Assembly (NCBI GenBank): GCA_038208905.1
Contig: JBBQYG010000054.1
Coordinates: 1 to 22,977 of the forward strand
Source of the DNA: Candidatus Sumerlaeia bacterium
Lineage (GTDB): Bacteria; Sumerlaeota; Sumerlaeia; SLMS01
DNA length: 22,977 bases
Reading direction: 5' to 3'
In this document: piece after piece, positions 2,245-18,685 of the stretch
Layout of the letters: every line of letters begins with the position of its first letter
Position numbering within the stretch: position 1 is the first letter of the stretch
Program-made: the position numbers and the translations under genes
The notes under the pieces: model-generated
What the model saw: only the letters and a program-made list of their open reading frames with translations
Databases searched by the model: none
Told to the model about the DNA's origin: nothing

Positions 2245-2478
2245 ATGGCGGATAAGTCCAACAAGTACGCTGAAAACGTTGCCGGCAAGTTCTTCGTCGA
2301 TGATTCCTGCATCGACTGCGACGCCTGCCGCGCCACCGCCCCGGACAACTTCGCCCGCGAGGATGAGAAGGGCTTCTCCTACGTCTTCAAGCAGCCCTCC
2401 AGCGAAGTCGAATACCAGCTCTGCATGGACGCCCTCGAGGGCTGCCCCGTCGAGGCCATCGGCAGCGACGGCGCCTGA
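2245..2478 (+). CDS. Ferredoxin, single 4Fe-4S cluster type (77 aa)
   Basis: MADKSNKYAENVAGKFFVDDSCIDCDAC...EGCPVEAIG contains CxxCxxC plus distal CP; GGAG upstream of ATG 2245. Confidence 0.93.
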   Translation: MADKSNKYAENVAGKFFVDDSCIDCDACRATAPDNFAREDEKGFSYVFKQPSSEVEYQLCMDALEGCPVEAIGSDGA

Positions 2479-2482
2479 TTTA

Positions 2483-2630
2483 CAGCAGGGGTGAGGGCTG
2501 AGGGATGAACGGCAACGGCATGGTGTGCCGCCGCAGTTTAATCCCCCCCCCATTGCATCCCACCAGCTCCGTACCACATGCCGTTCATCCCCTCTACCTC
2601 CTCACTCATCCCTGCCGTTCATCCCTCCTG
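2483..2630. repeat. Palindromic intergenic element A
   Basis: GAGGGATGAACGGCA (2500-2514) is the perfect reverse complement of TGCCGTTCATCCCTC (2613-2627); a second partial right arm lies at 2579-2591; purine-rich left half, pyrimidine-rich right half. Confidence 0.85.
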
Positions 2631-2736
2631 CTTGATCCCCGATCCCTTCCCTTTGGCCCCCCGCACAATTTCGCTTGATCTGACGCGCTCCAGGCCGTAG
2701 TGGGACATTTTTGCAAATCTGTCCGGAGGGCTGATC

Positions 2737-3132
2737 GTGTCCATCTTGCTTACCATGCGCGACGAGACGGCCGCAGGGGATCGTTCGGGGGATCTGGTTG
2801 TCGACGTGCCCGACGGCACGATGACCGTGCGGGAATTGATTCGGCAGCGGGTACTTAACGAAATTACGAATCGGATGGACGCGGACGATGCCGTGTTTGG
2901 CGGGCTGGTGCGCGTCCCCGACACGGAGGCGATGTTGAACCAGCGCGGCACGCGGCACCGGGTGGGCGTGGATCCCGATGCGCAGGTCGCCCGCGCCTGC
3001 GATGCATTCGAAAGCAACCGGTTCTTCCTTCTGGTGGATGGCCACCAGCCGACGGAACTGAACCAACAACTCGAACTCTCGGAAGCCTCGGAGATCGCAT
3101 TCGTCCGGCTCGTTCCGTTGGTGGGGGGATGA
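2737..3132 (+). CDS. Small protein with ThiS/MoaD/ubiquitin-like C-terminus (ends ...RLVPLVGG)
   Basis: GGAGG upstream of GTG 2737; 131 aa; C-terminal FLLVDGHQ...LNQQLELSEASEIAFVRLVPLVGG follows the pattern of beta-grasp sulfur-carrier C-termini. The fold call is inference. Confidence 0.8.
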   Translation: MSILLTMRDETAAGDRSGDLVVDVPDGTMTVRELIRQRVLNEITNRMDADDAVFGGLVRVPDTEAMLNQRGTRHRVGVDPDAQVARACDAFESNRFFLLVDGHQPTELNQQLELSEASEIAFVRLVPLVGG

Positions 3133-3331
3133 CCGATGTCTCTGGTGGTGAAAGAACTGCGGGAGCAGATTCGGATGGCCCTGCGGCCCACTAGATAACC
3201 GGCGCCATTGCGACGGCTTCGCTGGTGGACTATGCAAGTAGTGCCATTGGCGAAATAGAACGAACTCGCACCTGACCTGCTTACTCTCCTGACGTACCAC
3301 TGCTCGCGCAGAAGATTGGAGGAGCCACACC

Positions 3332-5923
3332 GTGCAATGGTGGAAAAGACTCTCCACCAGAAAGGGCAACGATGAGGATGGTCTTTCGCCCGTGGCAAAC
3401 GTTGCCGAGGTTCTTAGGGCCGAGGCATCGAAGACGCTCGCGGTAACCTCCATTCCTGCAACTCGGCTCACCCCGGAGATGCCCGTGGCAAAATACGCGA
3501 TGGGGGATCCCTACTCCGATCTGGGTCCTCGCATCCAGGAGTTGATGACCGTCTGCGCCCGGCTCGGATACCATTTGTCCGGGCAGCCCGATCCGAAAGT
3601 GGCCGAGCTTGCGTTCGACGACGACCCCGGTACTCAGGCTCGAATTGGCCTTGCTGTGTGCCGCTATATGATTGTGTGGGGATCGCTTTCCGAGCACACT
3701 CACCAGTTCGGCGGGCTACTGGGGCAACTCATCGCAAAGCGCGCCGAATGTTCCGAAATCGAGCTGGAATGGATCCTGTGCGCCGTGCTGATGCCGGAGC
3801 CGACCTACAGAAGGTTTGGCCATGTGACGGGCGCCGCGCGGCTGGCGGATCGATTGGCCAAGAAGCAGCCGCTGGGCGAACGCAGTCAACGGCTGCTGAT
3901 GGAAATCTCCCGCTTCCCAAGCCTCGCCGAGAACACGAGGGCGCGTCTGTGCCAGCTCGGAAGGGGTCAACCACTCGCCACGAGGCCAAATCCGGCCGGC
4001 ATGCCGTTGACCCCCCTGGTTACCGCGGAAACGAACTGGGGAAAGTCCGCATTCGAGTTCCTGGACAGCATGGAAGATGGCGAGCGCCAATCATGGATCG
4101 ACCTCATCAACCACGCGGCGACGGTCAGTGGCTCCACCCCCTCCGGAATTTGGATGAAGGAGGGCCTTGTATCCCTTGAACAGGTCGGGAAGGACGCCTT
4201 CGAGCGGAGAATGATGGATTGGATACCGATCTTTCAGCTATCGCCGGGGGGAGACGGCGCGGCTGCTCGATATTTTGCCCGGCGACGGGAGGAAAAGGAG
4301 ACGGTTGCCTACAAGGGCCTCGTTTGCTTCTGCTCATTCATCGGTAGCCCGGATCTCGCGATAGCACTGGCAGATCTTTGTCTGTATGCCTACAGGCAGG
4401 ACACCTTTATCGAGAAGGTCGCCAGCTCCGCCATCATGGCCCTGGGCGAAATGCCAAACCAGGTCGGCATTCCCCAGTTGACCAAGATCAAGTCCAAGCT
4501 GCGCCACAAGATCGCCCTCAAGAATGTAGAGAAGGCGCTGACGGTTGCCTCCCAGAAGGCGGGGATGGGCAAGGACGCCCTTCAGGAGTCGCTGGTTCCC
4601 GAGTTCGGCATGGTCGAGGTGGGTTCCGGCTCGATTCCCATCGGCGACTATACGCTGGAGTTCCAGATCGAGTCCAGCAGCCGGATCGCGCAAAGCTGGA
4701 AAAGCAGCGCCAGCAAAGTTCAAAGCTCCGTGCCCGCCGCCGTGAAGGCGGATCATGCCAGCGAATTGAAGGCCTTGAAGGACAATCTGAAGGAGTTGCA
4801 GAAGCAGCTCTCCACCCATCGTGAGCGGTTTGACCAGCTCATGCGCCGCCCGATTTCGTGGCGCTTTGACTGGTGGCGAAAGTATTACCTCGACCACCTG
4901 CTGATCGGCTGGTTCTCACGGCGGCTCATCTGGCAGTTCTCCGATGGCGGCTCGATCCGCCTTGGCTGCTGGAACGGAGAGGGGCTCGTGGACTCCGACG
5001 ACAAACCGCTGGGCAAGATCGCCGACGATGCCACGGTGGCGATCTATCACCCTGCGGGCTTTGACGAGGATGTGATCGTCGCCTGGCGAGACTGGATCGT
5101 GGGGAAGGAAATCGTCCAGCCCTTCAAGCAGGCCTTCCGCGAAGTCTACCTGGTGACCCCCGCGGAGCTCCAAACGGCAACCTACTCCAACCGATTCGCC
5201 GCTCACATCGTGCGCACCAATCAGGTGCTCGCCCTCGCCAAGACCCGCGGCTGGACGGTGAAGCCGATGGGAGGGTCCTTTGACGGCGCCGGCGAGGACC
5301 CCCCGCGCATACCCCTGCCCGAGTGGAACCTGACGGCGGAGTATTGGACGAACCCCATCAACGATGCCCACGACGACATGGGCTCGCCGCTCTATTTGAC
5401 CACTGATCAGGTCAAGTTCCTGCGCGACGGAGAAGCGCTGCCAATCTCCCAAGTTCCGATGCGCGTCTTCACGGAGATCATGCGCGACGTGGATCTCTTC
5501 GTCGGCGTGGGAAGCATCGCCAACGATCCCAACTGGGCCGACTCGGGTGAACGCCCGGACTTCGACAACTACTGGCGCATCTATTCCTTCGGGAAGGTGA
5601 GCGGAGCAGGAGCAAGCCGTCGGGCTGTGCTCGAGAAGCTGCTTCCCCGGATGAAGATCGCTCCGCGATGCAAGCTCGACGACCGCTTCCTGATCGTGAA
5701 AGGGGACCTCAAGACCTACAAGATCCACCTCGGCAGCGGCAACATCCTCATCGATTCCGGCATTTACCTCTGCATCGTCCCCCACAGCTCGCCGAGCGGA
5801 AAAATCTACCTCCCCTTCGAGGGCGACACGATGCTCTCGGTGATCATCAGCAAGGCCCTGATGCTGGCGGAGGACTCGAAGATCAAGGACGAGTCGATCC
5901 TGCGCCAGATCAAGCGCTCGTAA
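3332..5923 (+). CDS. DUF4132-domain protein (863 aa)
   Basis: GGAGGAG upstream of GTG 3332. Helical N-terminal half, then LVPEFGM...VPAAVK...RRLIW...IYHP...WRDWI...QPFKQAFREVY, recognised as DUF4132, and a C-terminal block FTEIMRDVDLFVGVGSIANDP...YKIHLGSGNI...YLCIVP...LPFEGD. Confidence 0.85.
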   Translation: MQWWKRLSTRKGNDEDGLSPVANVAEVLRAEASKTLAVTSIPATRLTPEMPVAKYAMGDPYSDLGPRIQELMTVCARLGYHLSGQPDPKVAELAFDDDPGTQARIGLAVCRYMIVWGSLSEHTHQFGGLLGQLIAKRAECSEIELEWILCAVLMPEPTYRRFGHVTGAARLADRLAKKQPLGERSQRLLMEISRFPSLAENTRARLCQLGRGQPLATRPNPAGMPLTPLVTAETNWGKSAFEFLDSMEDGERQSWIDLINHAATVSGSTPSGIWMKEGLVSLEQVGKDAFERRMMDWIPIFQLSPGGDGAAARYFARRREEKETVAYKGLVCFCSFIGSPDLAIALADLCLYAYRQDTFIEKVASSAIMALGEMPNQVGIPQLTKIKSKLRHKIALKNVEKALTVASQKAGMGKDALQESLVPEFGMVEVGSGSIPIGDYTLEFQIESSSRIAQSWKSSASKVQSSVPAAVKADHASELKALKDNLKELQKQLSTHRERFDQLMRRPISWRFDWWRKYYLDHLLIGWFSRRLIWQFSDGGSIRLGCWNGEGLVDSDDKPLGKIADDATVAIYHPAGFDEDVIVAWRDWIVGKEIVQPFKQAFREVYLVTPAELQTATYSNRFAAHIVRTNQVLALAKTRGWTVKPMGGSFDGAGEDPPRIPLPEWNLTAEYWTNPINDAHDDMGSPLYLTTDQVKFLRDGEALPISQVPMRVFTEIMRDVDLFVGVGSIANDPNWADSGERPDFDNYWRIYSFGKVSGAGASRRAVLEKLLPRMKIAPRCKLDDRFLIVKGDLKTYKIHLGSGNILIDSGIYLCIVPHSSPSGKIYLPFEGDTMLSVIISKALMLAEDSKIKDESILRQIKRS

Positions 5924-6036
5924 CGGCAGGGAGGAGGGCGAAGGGATCAACGGCAACGGCGCCGGTGTCCTTTTTTACTCCCCCATCCCTGCCGTTGTCG
6001 TTCATCCCTCATCCCTCCTTACCTCATCCCTTCTTT
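5922..6036. repeat. Palindromic intergenic element B, related to element A; may double as a terminator between convergent genes
   Basis: AGGGATCAACGGCAACGGC (5942-5960) matches the reverse complement of GCCGTTGTCGTTCATCCCT (5991-6009) at 17/19; AACGGCAGGGA (5922-5932) pairs with TCCCTGCCGTT (5986-5996); followed by several TCATCCC heptamers. Confidence 0.85.
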
Positions 6037-7038
6037 TCATCCCCTCAGCCGGGCGAACCCCTTCAGCCGCACCACCTTGATGCAGGTCTCCAGCCGGGGG
6101 CGGAACTTCTTCTTGAACTGGGCCACGCTCTCCGTGTTGGCGCCCACCCAGTCATAGAGGAACGGCGCGCCGCGCTGGCGGAAGAAGTGTTCCGTGACTG
6201 CGGCGTGAAGCAGCGACGGCCCGCCGGAGCCCTCGTCGCTATCCGGCGCGGAAGCGCCGAGCAGGTAGTACACCCGCCCCGCGTCTCCGGCGAAGACACC
6301 ACCCGCGACGGGCTCTCCGGAAGGGGCGCGGACCAGCGCGGCCTCGGCGGAGAGACCGGGTTCGTCCAGATCGAGAAGCGCCTCGTAGCACGCGGGCGCC
6401 ACGAAGTGCGGGAGGCCCTGCCGCTCGCGGGTTTTTTCCCAGAGCGCGATGATCGCGGGCAACTGCCCGCGCCCCCACTCGACAGTCAAACCCGCCTCGC
6501 GCGCCTTGCGGATCTGGCGCCGCGCCGCGCTTTCGGCCGATTGCTCCAGTGCCTCGGGCGCGCCGATCTCCGACACGTAGTTGTAGTGCGGCGTGGCCCG
6601 CCACCCCTGCCACACCAAGCCCCGCGCGTCCGGCGTCTCGGCGGGAAGGATGACCTCGGCACGGGAAACCGCGTCGGGGACGGCCAGTGCCGCCGCCTTC
6701 AGGACATCGCGCAGGAACGACTCGGAGGGATTCCGTTCGGCGAGTAGGCCCGCAAAGGGCGCGGGCGCGGTGTTCATCCACCGGAGTTCCAGCCGGTGGC
6801 GGCGCTCGACGAAGGCCAGGCCCGCAAGCAGGTCGCCGTTCTCTCCCCGCACGCCCACGCGCACCGGGCGGCCCACGTCGCGGGCGGCGCAATCGGCCCA
6901 CGCCCAATTCAGGCCCAGGTGCCCCGGCGAGCGCCGCCACAGCGCCTCCCATTCGCCGCGCGCGTCCTGGCCCAACAGGCTTGCCCGATACCCACGCGCC
7001 ACCGTTGCCACGCCCCCGCAAGGCTGAATCATTCCCAC
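6037..7038 (-). CDS. GNAT-family (FemAB/BioF2-like) acyltransferase
   Basis: ARRQIRKARE..GL, PVAGGVF, VYYLLGAS, GPSLLH, YDWVGANTESVAQFKKKF are typical of FemAB-like GNAT proteins. Start uncertain (7038, 7032 or 7011). Confidence 0.85.
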   Translation of the reverse strand: MGMIQPCGGVATVARGYRASLLGQDARGEWEALWRRSPGHLGLNWAWADCAARDVGRPVRVGVRGENGDLLAGLAFVERRHRLELRWMNTAPAPFAGLLAERNPSESFLRDVLKAAALAVPDAVSRAEVILPAETPDARGLVWQGWRATPHYNYVSEIGAPEALEQSAESAARRQIRKAREAGLTVEWGRGQLPAIIALWEKTRERQGLPHFVAPACYEALLDLDEPGLSAEAALVRAPSGEPVAGGVFAGDAGRVYYLLGASAPDSDEGSGGPSLLHAAVTEHFFRQRGAPFLYDWVGANTESVAQFKKKFRPRLETCIKVVRLKGFARLRG

Positions 7039-7208
7039 TGCGAATAAATGGGTTTCCAGACCCGGGCGAAAGGGGAATTGCCAGCTCCAGAATCCTGAAG
7101 CATCGGGGTTTCCGGAGAATTCCCTTGTGGCGACACGGGGCCTCGGGGAAGTTCGACCGTCTTCAAATGAGACGTTTTAGTGCCACACTTTCCTTATGGA
7201 GGTGCGCA

Positions 7209-7973
7209 ATGGGTGATTATGATGCCCTGGAGCGCCGATTGGCAGAGTTGAATGGAAAGCTTGACGCCGTGGCTCAGGCCAATACTGGCGCCAAGCTGAC
7301 TGCAAGGCTGGTGACCGTGGTGATCGTGATCGCGGCGGTCGGCGGCGTTTACCTGCTGCTGCGCCCTGCCATCGATGCCTACAACAATCCCAAGCCTTAT
7401 CAGGACGCGCTGGCCGAAGAGTTCAAGACCCGTGTGTTTCCCGAAATCAGCACCGAACTTCAGGAGAGCGTCAAGACGGTCGGCCCCGAAGTCGGCCAAC
7501 TCGTCATCAAGAGGATCGAGTCCCGCTATGAGGACGTGGTCAAGGTTGTGGATTTCGAGGCCAGGGAACTGGTCACCAGCCTGAAGGACCATACCCAGAC
7601 GGAGCTTTCCGGCTCCGTGACGGAACTCGAGGCGGGCCTCAAGGACCGCATCACCAAGGCCGTTCCCGAGATTGCCGACGAGGCCAATCGCGAGACCGTC
7701 ATCGGCAACGCCGCGGTCGGCATCGAGAACGCCGTCAAGCGCGTGGTTGAAGAGACCTTCGAGCGCCACATCACGACGCTCAACCAGATCGAGCTCAAGC
7801 TGCTGGAGATTCCCGTTCCCGACAGCGTCAAGAAGATGGACGACGAGGAATTGGCGATGGAGTTGCAGCGCGCCCTTTCCGAGTACGCCCTTGCGATGCT
7901 TCAGCACTCGTTCTCGCCGGAGACCAAGCAGGTCCTTGGTCGCCTTGCCGAGACCCCGACCAAGACAGACTGA
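7209..7973 (+). CDS. Single-TM, alpha-helical hypothetical protein (254 aa), paralogue 1
   Basis: GGAGGT upstream of ATG 7209; short coiled-coil, TM segment LVTVVIVIAAVGGVYLLL, long amphipathic helical region. The track ORF extension to 6687 overlaps the GNAT gene and is unlikely. Confidence 0.85.
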   Translation: MGDYDALERRLAELNGKLDAVAQANTGAKLTARLVTVVIVIAAVGGVYLLLRPAIDAYNNPKPYQDALAEEFKTRVFPEISTELQESVKTVGPEVGQLVIKRIESRYEDVVKVVDFEARELVTSLKDHTQTELSGSVTELEAGLKDRITKAVPEIADEANRETVIGNAAVGIENAVKRVVEETFERHITTLNQIELKLLEIPVPDSVKKMDDEELAMELQRALSEYALAMLQHSFSPETKQVLGRLAETPTKTD

Positions 7974-7986
7974 GGAGACCACCAAA

Positions 7987-8751
7987 ATGTCCGACAAAGA
8001 TAGCGTTCTTCGCCAGATCGGCGACTTGGAAAAGAGGCTCGAGGCCCAGATCGCCCGCGCCAAGTCCGCGCAGACGGTCTCCGTGATTATTGGCGCGGTT
8101 CTCGTCGCCGTCATGATCGGCTACTTCACCTGGATGTCCGGCATGGTGAAGGAGGCGCTCAAGCCCAAGGAAGCCGCCCAGATGGCCTCCCAGCAGATCG
8201 TCACCCGCGTCAAGGAACTGCGGCCCGACCTCGAAAAGGCTGCCCGCGAGAACGCCCCGCTGCTTGTTGACAACCTTGTCGACGAGCTGATCAACAACCA
8301 GATTCCCGCCGGCCGCAAGGCGCTGGAAAAGGAAATCAAGACCCAGAGCTCCGCCCAGGTCGCCAAGCTGATCGAGCGCATCTACGCCGAGTTCGACAAT
8401 ATCCTCGAGACCCACGCCGAACAGGTCCGCGAGATGGCCAAACTCCTCCAGACCAGCGAAGGCCGCGAGGAATTCGAGACCCAGATGTACGCCCGCATCA
8501 AGGAAGCCGTGACTGACGAGGAGATTACCAGGAACCTCGACAGCTATGGCAACGCCCTCGATGAAATCGACGCCACTCTGGGCCGCATCATCGTCCCCGG
8601 CGCGGAACTCACCCCCGCGGAGAGGAACACCCTCGAGTTGCTCGCCGTCGTCCGCGAGCTTGCCGGCCGCTCGAAGTTCGATCTCAAGACCCTTCCCGCC
8701 ATCGAAGGCCTCGACGAATCCCTGAAGGCCAAGGCCGAAGACGTCAAGTAA
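7987..8751 (+). CDS. Single-TM, alpha-helical hypothetical protein (254 aa), paralogue 2
   Basis: GAGGAG upstream of ATG 7987; same layout as the previous gene, TM segment VSVIIGAVLVAVMIGYFTWM. Confidence 0.87.
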   Translation: MSDKDSVLRQIGDLEKRLEAQIARAKSAQTVSVIIGAVLVAVMIGYFTWMSGMVKEALKPKEAAQMASQQIVTRVKELRPDLEKAARENAPLLVDNLVDELINNQIPAGRKALEKEIKTQSSAQVAKLIERIYAEFDNILETHAEQVREMAKLLQTSEGREEFETQMYARIKEAVTDEEITRNLDSYGNALDEIDATLGRIIVPGAELTPAERNTLELLAVVRELAGRSKFDLKTLPAIEGLDESLKAKAEDVK

Positions 8752-9919: not shown

Positions 9920-10124
9920 AGCCGCCGCGCCCGTCAAACAACGTGGCCGTGAAATGACCATTTCCTACTCATGTGCCGGAAGACATGTGAAGGAAACGGC
10001 TTTTTCCATATAAATTCGGGTTTACGTGCAAATAAAAAGGCGCTTTCTTTGCATGTACCGTGGGGCATGTAAAGATGAAGCGGTTCTCTTTCCATGTGAT
10101 TTCGGCGAAAACCGGGGACGCACG

Positions 10125-11196
10125 ATGATTCCAAGGATCAGCGAAGGTTTCCCCCTCGGCAAGATCGAGACGGTTGCGGTGCTGAAGCGACTCGCGGGGG
10201 TCAGCAGGCGCCTCGCCGAACTCAAGGGCATGGGAGGAACGATCCCCAAGCCTGGAATCCTGATCAATACGCTCGCCATGCAGGAGGCAAAGGACAGCTC
10301 GGAGATTGAGAATATCGTCGCGACCCAAGACGAAATCTATCGCGGGGACCTTTTTCTGGAGGTGGCTTCCACCCCCGCCGCCAAGGAAGTTCAGCGGTAC
10401 GCCACCGCAATGCGCGTCGGCTACGACAGCGTCCGGTCCACCGGACTGCTGACCGCGAACCACATTCTGGAAATTCAGTCGGTGCTGAAAGGAAACGGCG
10501 CCGGGCTCCGCAAGCTCCCCGGCACAGTGCTGAAGGACGCGGCGGGCGCCGTTGTCTATACGCCCCCCCCAGGACCCCGCGGAGATCGTCGCGCTGATGA
10601 CCGATGTCGAGCGGTGCATCAACGATCCCGCCTATCTCCCCGTGGACCCGCTGATCAAGATGGCGGTGATCCACCACCAGTTTGAGAGCATCCACCCCTT
10701 CTACGACGGCAACGGCCGCACGGGCCGGATCGTCAACGTGCTCTATCTGGTCAAGGAGGGCCTCCTCGACCTGCCGATCCTCTCTATGAGCCGCCAGATC
10801 CTGCGCACGAAAGCCGACTACTACCGCCTCCTCCGCGACTCGCGCGCCTCCGGCAATTGGGAAGAGTGGATTATCTACGTGCTCGACTGCGTCGAGAAAA
10901 CGGCCATCGGCGCAGTCAAGACGATCACCGCCATCAGTGAGGCGATGCAGTCCCGCAAGGAGCACATCCGCCACCACCACAAGTTCTATAGCCAAGACCT
11001 GCTGAACAGCATCTTTCAGCACCCCTACACGAAGATCGAATTCATGCAAGACGAGCTGAAGGTCTCAAGGCCGACCGCGACCAAGTACCTCGAAGAGCTG
11101 ACGGCGAGCGGCGTCCTCGCCAAAGAGAAGCGCGGACGATCGAACTACTACATCAACACGGCTCTGTGGGCGATCCTTATCGCCGAGCGGGAATAG
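10125..11196 (+). pseudogene. Fic-family AMPylase with N-terminal domain and C-terminal HTH, interrupted by a +1 frameshift
   Basis: Frame 1 from ATG 10125 has LAELKG...LINTL..QEAKDSSEIENI...VYTPP; the other frame continues QDP...HHQFESIHPFYDGNGRTGR...VSRPTATKYLEEL. The junction is the C8 run at 10563-10570; C7 would give one 356-aa ORF. Confidence 0.85.

Positions 11197-15790: not shown

Positions 15791-18685
<2,895 letters not shown>

Follow-up and report, generated by a model that had tools for sequence, protein, structure and literature searches.

In the MoaD, ThiS, TtuB, SAMP, and Urm1 systems, beta-grasp proteins undergo MoeB/ThiF-type activation, and the E1 enzyme involved can be shared and encoded elsewhere in the genome, with shared E1s known for TtuB/TtuC, SAMPs/UbaA, and CysO/MoeZ. 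The Bil, Bub, and CBASS type II Cap2 systems combine a ubiquitin-like protein bearing a reactive C-terminal glycine with an E1 of their own, a UBC-type E2, and usually a JAB protease. To our knowledge, bacterial ubiquitin-like systems are known mostly from phage defense, and the described ones carry their own E1, E2, and protease. A single essential Cys in a C-terminal domain is found in BIRC6 and UBE2O, which are giant E2/E3 hybrids, and in the HECT protein HUWE1. Here, we analyze a two-gene locus from a Candidatus Sumerlaeia bacterium (assembly GCA_038208905.1), carried on a 22,977-nucleotide (nt) stretch of contig JBBQYG010000054.1 that we refer to in its entirety as the window. The first gene encodes a protein of 131 amino acids (aa) whose C-terminal end, EIAFVRLVPLVGG, is followed by the stop codon; the second, in the same orientation, encodes an 863-aa protein with DUF4132 and DUF7737 domains, and both start with GTG. 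We document the fold class of the small protein, the conservation of its Gly-Gly (GG) end, the linkage of the two genes, the co-occurrence of the small protein with DUF7737, the covariation of the GG end with a cysteine of DUF7737 (Cys814 in this protein), and the occasional presence of a dedicated E1. The best explanation of these results is that the two genes form a self-contained module, with the free GG carboxylate of the small protein as its working end. The covariation, which is new here, takes the form of a cysteine kept only where GG is kept, and this pattern of sequence conservation points to a bacterial protein-tagging or sulfur-transfer system.

Fold, family, and C-terminal end of the small protein

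Using AlphaFold2 (AF2), the small protein models as a ubiquitin-like beta-grasp with an insert (predicted local distance difference test score, pLDDT, 76.7). The predicted layout consists of strands at residues 2-10 and 16-25, a further short strand, a helix (31-53), the insert (54-74), a second helix (80-92), and strands at 97-100, 111-113, and 120-123, with the insert modeled at low confidence yet conserved in sequence. The best Foldseek matches in the PDB were MoaD, ubiquitin with a MoaD-type insertion, SUMO, NEDD8, ISG15, and SAMP1, with modest scores throughout (E 0.01-0.1, probability at most 0.99, template-modeling (TM) score ~0.55-0.60 on the target). The original prediction, made by reading the sequence alone, had proposed a beta-grasp fold with an insertion; the modeled strand-strand-helix...strand order and the MoaD-like and ubiquitin-like matches support this proposal, with scores that remain modest.

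We also searched for relatives of the small protein by sequence. Neither Pfam, NCBIfam, nor PADLOC returned any match. A single-sequence search returned 93 relatives of ~130 aa, all unnamed, and a profile search scored 6079 clusters (90% identity) among 8000 scorable candidates. An exhaustive profile search against 1.84 billion representatives (50% identity) identified 2498 at E ≤ 0.001, 1506 at E ≤ 1e-10, and 295 at E ≤ 1e-30; unlike the word-based searches and the DNA locus pattern used below, it does not favor sequences with the LVPLVGG tail. An ESM Atlas search with a small-protein homologue returned unnamed clusters only. We additionally considered fusion proteins as potential Rosetta stones, and rejected them: three longer proteins proved to be frameshifted or chimeric, none with an internal LVPLVGG, and an apparent 969-aa fusion (P0247) carries the tail at its own C-terminus with a start codon just before the small-protein part, as in a run-through gene call.

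The top two Foldseek matches being MoaD chains favors an alternative account, in which the small protein is a sulfur carrier. Here, E1 adenylation would be followed by formation of a C-terminal thiocarboxylate as in MoaD, ThiS, CysO, and TtuB, Cys814 would act as a persulfide relay or acyl-disulfide partner, and the small protein would deliver the sulfur to a reaction catalyzed by the DUF4132-DUF7737 protein. The sequence comparisons argue against it, as the small protein has no hmmscan match to the ThiS/MoaD family PF02597 at E ≤ 1, is not among the genome-wide PF02597 matches (which comprise two other genes), and scores only 0.4% and 0.5% in hhalign comparisons with the two ordinary ThiS/MoaD proteins of this genome. 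Taking into account the further evidence given below, we consider the sulfur-carrier account unlikely.

The original prediction had also drawn attention to the free terminal GG, and this feature is conserved across the family. In a 48-sequence alignment of the small protein, G130 is invariant and G131 is present in at least 90% of sequences. The GG end was found in 206 of 208 homologues (198 of them with the exact LVPLVGG end) and in 143 of 145 further representatives, the two exceptions among the latter appearing frameshifted. Across several hundred homologues, the GG end is present without any C-terminal extension.

Linkage to DUF4132-DUF7737 genes

A one-genome-per-species scan found 579 loci, 80 of which were kept for locus analysis. 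Streptomyces accounts for 32 of the 80, with the others from other Actinomycetota, Planctomycetota, Acidobacteriota, Armatimonadota, and Verrucomicrobiota, as well as one cyanobacterium, a Longimicrobiaceae genome, a gammaproteobacterium, and a Fluviicola. We detected a homologue of the large protein (tblastn) in 76 of these loci, nearly always directly downstream on the same strand and usually starting 0-40 nt after the small-gene stop; the other four lie on a short contig or have partial or degenerate copies of the large gene. This pairing of small and large genes is far beyond chance. It bears out the DUF4132 linkage that had been proposed, and does so also when starting from the DUF7737 side. 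Clustering of 1120 non-overlapping neighboring open reading frames (ORFs) revealed no third conserved neighbor gene outside of Streptomyces synteny.

The arrangement varies in some loci. Three loci from Verrucomicrobiota (L011, L050, and L063) contain two to four tandem DUF4132-DUF7737 paralogues after a single ubiquitin-like gene, all with the Cys, while two others (L036 and L039) exhibit a reversed order, with the large gene first and the small gene directly after.

The small protein and DUF7737 co-occur across genomes. In 151 genomes sampled from one class, the five with the small protein are also the five with DUF7737, and DUF4132 is found in those five and one more; among 40 relatives of the genome studied here, the small protein occurs in three and DUF7737 in two of those three, the third copy being cut by a contig end. 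In control genomes, DUF4132 matches in E. coli and DUF7737 does not. The DUF4132 proteins without DUF7737 that we examined have no small protein; one such gene, on a plasmid of Streptomyces sp. NBC_00211 (L115), is followed by AAA ATPase, DUF5682, and VWA genes, and one in Burkholderia is accompanied by a small regulator. The association with MoxR and VWA genes that the original prediction gave for DUF4132 belongs to a different class of DUF4132 proteins, one without DUF7737 and without the small protein.

Domains and invariant residues of the large protein

The DUF4132 label given to the large protein stands (PF13569, 157.9 bits against a gathering cut-off of 27), to which our analysis adds a C-terminal DUF7737 domain that had not been named (PF24879, 129.4 bits against a cut-off of 27). 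The AF2 model (pLDDT 80.6) consists of a helical solenoid at residues ~60-420, poorly conserved in sequence, followed by alpha/beta domains. Foldseek searches of the whole model against the PDB and BFVD returned helical-repeat or solenoid matches only (TM at most 0.33), and a PDB profile search with the whole partner returned designed helical repeats only (E at least 0.009). Together, the structure and profile searches explain the solenoid part alone. Weak Pfam matches over 40 DUF7737 sequences included no E2, RWD, or peptidase family, and an ESM Atlas search with the C-terminal part returned DUF4132/DUF7737 clusters only.

Conservation across 40 partner proteins is concentrated elsewhere. DUF4132 contains an invariant block (QPFKQA..E.Y..T.AE..T..YSNR...H), and many polar residues in the C-terminal half are invariant, including His799 and Cys814 within the motif Y.IHLGS.N ... 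YLC. Cys814 is the only invariant Cys of the partners. Among the distant partners examined, only L105 departs from His799, with Ser at this position. The first reading of the sequence had singled out this His and Cys as candidate reactive residues; their invariance and, for the Cys, the covariation described next support the choice of the two as candidates. The modeled layout of DUF7737 (helix, three short strands, His...Asn, Cys, loop, two helices) places H799-x4-N804-x9-C814 after three short strands and before helices, a spacing that recalls the E2 layout, and we treat an 'E2-like' DUF7737 as an open idea rather than a finding.

These features also bear on the sulfur-carrier account. A helical scaffold of at least ~400 residues is unusual for a sulfur-insertion enzyme, and since only a single Cys is invariant, an Fe-S site is unlikely.

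Covariation of Cys814 with the Gly-Gly end

We next compared the Cys814 position of the partner with the C-terminal end of the small protein. In a set of 104 DUF7737 domains, the position is Cys in 93, another residue in 10 (Ser in 6, Asn in 2, Ala in 1, and Phe in 1), and truncated in 1. All 93 Cys domains are in loci with a GG-ended small protein, and none of the 10 non-Cys domains is: in six of the 10, the small protein ends G-S/T/R-x-W, and in the remaining four it is undetected at E ≤ 0.01, one of the four having a weaker match (E 0.0078) that ends AGSTY.

The non-Cys cases include Bacteroidota 'giants' (~1700 aa) whose small proteins end in AGSYW, AGSIW, TGTYW, or SGRLW and whose partners have Ser or Ala at the Cys site, as well as two further giants and an Acetobacter plasmid gene that have Ser, Asn, or Phe at this site and no detectable small protein. 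GG and Cys are both kept in other distant members, namely three Deinococcus species and two further genomes (G012 and G004), with small-protein ends LAGG or LEGG. Because GG and Cys are retained together in the long forms from Deinococcus and G012, the 'giant' branch comprises both states. The joint loss of GG and Cys, with varied replacement of the latter (Ser, Ala, Asn), is what would be expected of a constraint lost together with the free carboxylate. The same covariation also fits sulfur transfer.

A non-covalent partnership was considered here as well, in which the small protein would be a stoichiometric regulatory or chaperone-like subunit that binds through its tail and insert, without activation of the carboxylate. 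Tight gene coupling fits such a role, as do the persistence of the pairing in Bacteroidota forms with a G-S/T/R-x-W end and a partner without Cys, the lack of a linked E1 in most loci, and the conserved insert (residues 54-74), which is modeled as disordered, as segments that fold upon binding a partner would be. Binding alone, however, hardly explains a near-absolute free GG without extension in several hundred sequences, and both the joint loss of Cys and GG and a ThiF gene translationally coupled to the pair in two loci (see below) speak against it, leaving this account quite unlikely.

Two loci with divergent copies were observed on plasmids. On Fulvitalea axinellae plasmid pFA1 (L107, 929-6617, minus strand), a weak 157-aa relative (E 0.0078, end AGSTY) of the small protein lies next to a canonical pair, divergently oriented, and precedes a 1704-aa DUF5724 protein whose C-terminal end is DUF7737-like, with Asn at the Cys site. 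On a mobilizable plasmid of Acetobacter oryzifermentans (L112, 3976-7326), a DUF4132-DUF7737 gene without the Cys has no detectable ubiquitin-like partner, and its neighbors are BrnT toxin, ParB-domain, and helicase genes.

Occasional dedicated E1 genes

The genome under study (93.9% complete) contains one ThiF-family gene, of MoeB type, which adjoins an NDH-2 gene on another contig (C68); with one MoeB-like E1 in the genome, a shared E1 is available. It also has a single sub-threshold Prok-JAB match on another contig, and none of 75 genomes of the phylum has Prok-E2_B. Two Bacteroidota loci (L075 and L102) have a ThiF gene of 236-238 aa, assigned by NCBIfam to the MoeB/ThiF type, with a 4-nt overlap at the large-gene stop; one of these two genomes has four ThiF genes in all. 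A dedicated E1 thus appears to have been added at least in this lineage, which is consistent with an activated GG end and with a shared E1 encoded elsewhere. No E2 or JAB gene is conserved in the neighborhoods of the pair.

The original prediction had noted that E1, E2, JAB, MoxR, and vWA genes were lacking. Within the window this holds, with none of these families found among the 20 larger ORFs scanned (a set that leaves out ORFs shorter than 150 aa beyond position 10000); beyond the window, the MoeB-like E1 of this genome and the ThiF genes of the two related loci qualify the statement. In terms of sulfur transfer, plain MoeB/ThiF-type E1s and the lack of a linked E2 or JAB gene are as that account would have them, whereas conserved genes for a rhodanese, a cysteine desulfurase, or biosynthesis are lacking beside the pair.

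A Deinococcus relative in a DNA-damage regulon

Our analysis also revealed a remote relative of the pair in a well-studied organism. Deinococcus radiodurans DRA0165 is a 134-aa protein ending in LAGG, followed 2 nt on by DRA0166, a 1626-aa DUF4132 protein. DRA0165 matches the small-protein family profile (hhalign 97.9%, E 3.8e-13; hmmsearch E 7.9e-14), and the C-terminal end of DRA0166 is a DUF7737 domain with His and Cys both kept (hhalign 99.4%). Judged by these profile comparisons, the DRA0165-DRA0166 operon is a remote member of the pair.

In the available text of PMC8533742, this operon is described as a DdrO/IrrE target with a radiation/desiccation response motif (RDRM) at -83, strongly upregulated on DdrO depletion, and DRA0166 protein is reported to be induced by mitomycin C in wild type and not in an irrE mutant; both proteins are treated there as of unknown function. 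The corresponding text of PMC9650054 presents DR_A0165 as 'SEP068184', a small 'SEP' protein whose C-terminal region is conserved and which is called Deinococcus-specific, and reports a raised antioxidant capacity on its deletion. On the presence of an upstream RDRM the two papers disagree, as PMC9650054 states that DR_A0165 has none. That study used C-terminally as well as N-terminally tagged constructs, the former of which would have precluded any chemistry at the GG end. The word 'ubiquitin' has zero occurrences in the text available for PMC9650054, and neither paper, as far as its available text goes, recognizes the ubiquitin-like fold. More broadly, we found no paper recognizing the pair in open full text; supplements and subscription journals were not covered, and an earlier mention is possible.

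Directly upstream of DRA0165, at positions 1136-2665 of D. radiodurans record NZ_OV024759.1 (L111), are two YeeE/YedE genes and trxC. This suggests a possible sulfur or redox context for the Deinococcus member, and both this arrangement and the altered antioxidant capacity of the deletion mutant (PMC9650054, in the text available) favor the sulfur-carrier account. The Deinococcus member suggests by analogy that the pair functions in a response to stress or DNA damage more probably than in phage defense.

The original prediction had placed the pair in a conflict or defense module, and an anti-phage role with a logic like that of Bil, Bub, and CBASS-Cap2 does have some evidence on its side. Genomes with the small protein are patchily distributed (3 of 40 relatives, 5 of 151, and 10 of 401 over the family cut-off), some Verrucomicrobiota loci have tandem paralogous large genes, and bacterial ubiquitin-like systems are known mostly from defense. 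PADLOC, however, gave no match for either protein, and the window neighbors are ordinary, among them an ABC ATPase, a ferredoxin, a GNAT protein, and a transaldolase. The Streptomyces copies (32 loci) share common flanking gene clusters, indicating stable vertical inheritance, and the small protein was found in only 4 of 72,556 plasmid records, none of the four mobilizable. Together with the DNA-damage control reported for the studied Deinococcus relative (PMC8533742, in the text available), these observations turn against the defense proposal, which we now regard as very improbable.

Proposed mechanism

Of the readings weighed here, we place first that of a ubiquitin-like protein activated by an E1 and reacting with the DUF7737 residue Cys814, holding it with somewhat less than even confidence, followed by the sulfur carrier and then the non-covalent partnership. 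Under this proposal, a MoeB/ThiF-type E1 would adenylate the GG end, a role that could here fall to the single such enzyme of the genome on another contig. The activated end would then react with Cys814, most likely forming a thioester, as the covariation suggests. More speculatively, the large protein might act as both carrier and scaffold in the manner of an E2/E3 hybrid, passing the small protein on to a target or to itself, with a substrate or signal bound by its solenoid and DUF4132 part.

Several observations weigh against this proposal. The first 80 loci were fetched by a pattern containing LVPLVGG, such that their GG ends are given by construction, and the small-protein Foldseek E values are at least 0.01. 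In the covariation analysis, the pairing rule missed the small gene in 21 of the 93 Cys cases—because of open frames that cover the small gene, tandem copies, inverted gene order, or genes that are split—and the whole locus was relied on there. The non-Cys cases are nearly all Bacteroidota 'giants' and may trace back to one or two events in evolution, leaving the covariation with few independent changes behind it. The pairing also persists in a branch without a free GG, implying that part of the partnership is independent of the carboxylate. The loci examined yielded a dedicated E1 just once among 80 and twice among 6. As for an E2-like DUF7737, its profile has 0 matches to PDB sequences at E ≤ 10, hhalign gives 0.15% against Prok-E2_B (a 4-sequence alignment of the only E2 family assembled), and Asn804, which would match the asparagine of the E2 HPN motif, is not kept in distant members.

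An extended version of the proposal envisions a widespread minimal ubiquitin-like conjugation system, in which the tag would borrow a housekeeping MoeB/ThiF as its E1, be loaded onto the one invariant Cys of DUF7737, which would be a new catalytic domain at the end of an E2/E3-hybrid scaffold, and mark proteins when DNA is damaged or under oxidative stress, in organisms such as Streptomyces, Deinococcus, Planctomycetota, Acidobacteriota, and many others; we put this forward tentatively and regard it as doubtful in its full scope. The covariation of Cys and GG lends itself to a precise and cheap experiment, for which D. radiodurans offers a genetic system with a DNA-damage-responsive operon.

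Features of the locus and the window

Coordinates of the two genes and their features are given in Table 1; both ORFs lie where the original prediction had placed them, each with a purine-rich motif resembling a ribosome-binding site (RBS), which for the large gene reads GGAGGAG and is located 8 nt upstream of the GTG.

Table 1 Features of the two-gene locus, in window positions
Feature	Position	Strand	Basis
RBS-like GGAGGG, 7 nt upstream of small-gene GTG	2725..2730	+	Sequence reading
Small ubiquitin-like (beta-grasp, as modeled) gene, 131 aa	2737..3132	+	ORF; AF2 model; Foldseek
Codons of tail LVPLVGG, TGA stop directly after	3109..3129	+	Homologue conservation
Intergenic spacer, 199 nt	3133..3331	+	Sequence; crossed by contigs of two runs
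Large gene: alpha-solenoid, DUF4132, middle region, DUF7737	3332..5923	+	ORF; Pfam; AF2
All-helical HEAT/ARM-like solenoid, residues ~60-420	3509..4591	+	AF2 secondary structure; Foldseek
DUF4132 domain, residues 462-641	4715..5254	+	Pfam E 3.4e-46; genome search with same coordinates
DUF7737 domain, residues 762-860	5615..5911	+	Pfam E 6e-38
His799 codon, motif Y.IHLGS.N	5726..5728	+	Invariant in 40 partners
Cys814 codon, motif YLC, candidate reactive residue	5771..5773	+	Invariant in 40 partners

The spacer between the two genes is 199 nt here, compared with 0-40 nt in the loci of most relatives. In two independent runs (X3 and X1), contigs span it with zero indels, indicating that it is real rather than an assembly fault. 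It contains a 20-codon mini-ORF (3136-3198) with no detectable relation to homologues, and the possibility of a remnant of a longer large gene was rejected after blastx of the region returned nothing significant. The low model confidence of residues 1-57 (pLDDT below 50) leaves the actual start of the large gene uncertain.

A promoter and terminator scan returned no promoter site before the small gene and no terminator within 2300-6300. Among 22 runs, none was listed as an RNA source for the locus, and the contigs compared were from DNA. Directly before the small-gene RBS lies a 22-nt palindrome (2703-2724) with 5-nt outer arms and an inner TTTGCAAA-like core. We considered it as an operator: its outer pattern occurs at 5 genome sites versus 2 in the control, the other four sites have G+C-rich centers, and its left arm differs in the run X1 contig. 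It is probably not a regulon operator.

Families identified among the 20 larger ORFs of the window also include Fic_N, a hybrid sensor kinase, and a TPR protein. The Fic/DOC N-terminal domain (Fic_N, E 2.9e-23) is encoded by an ORF at 10026-10685 (+), and the hybrid sensor kinase is a 964-aa protein (15791-18685, +) with periplasmic solute-binding and PAS domains, a kinase core, and a receiver. Two adjacent ORFs (7182-7973 and 7987-8751, +), each of ~260 aa, have no Pfam family.

Comparison with known systems

With 2498 representatives at 50% identity and at least 579 species genomes from several phyla, including Streptomyces and Deinococcus, the family described here is a large one. Like the MoaD-MoaE/MoeB, ThiS-ThiG/ThiF, TtuB/TtuC, SAMP/UbaA, and Urm1/Uba4 systems, it features a beta-grasp protein (as modeled) with a free GG end; MoaD is the best fold match, and the dedicated E1s of the two Bacteroidota loci are of MoeB/ThiF type. 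It differs from ThiS and MoaD in lacking sequence membership of their family and in the length of the small protein, 131 aa with an insert of ~45 residues, and the partner is a DUF4132-DUF7737 protein rather than MoaE, ThiG, CysM, or TtuA.

In common with Bil, Bub, and Cap2, the pair has a ubiquitin-like protein ending in glycine and presumably also a partner that bears a Cys. Unlike them, it has no linked E2 or JAB gene, a ThiF gene is adjacent in 1 of 80 loci, and there is no PADLOC match; a pair without its own linked E2 or protease, and usually without an E1, sets this family apart from the described bacterial ubiquitin-like systems. The MoxR/VWA-associated DUF4132 proteins (E. coli YehI/MolR type; L115) share DUF4132 with it, without DUF7737 or an upstream ubiquitin-like gene. 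By analogy only, the large protein may be likened to BIRC6, UBE2O, and HUWE1, in which a large helical scaffold carries a small C-terminal domain with a single Cys. A pair of the same kind is DRA0165-DRA0166 of D. radiodurans, whose large protein is about twice as long and has Thr in place of Asn804, and which exhibits the same order of a small GG-ended protein followed by its DUF4132-DUF7737 partner.

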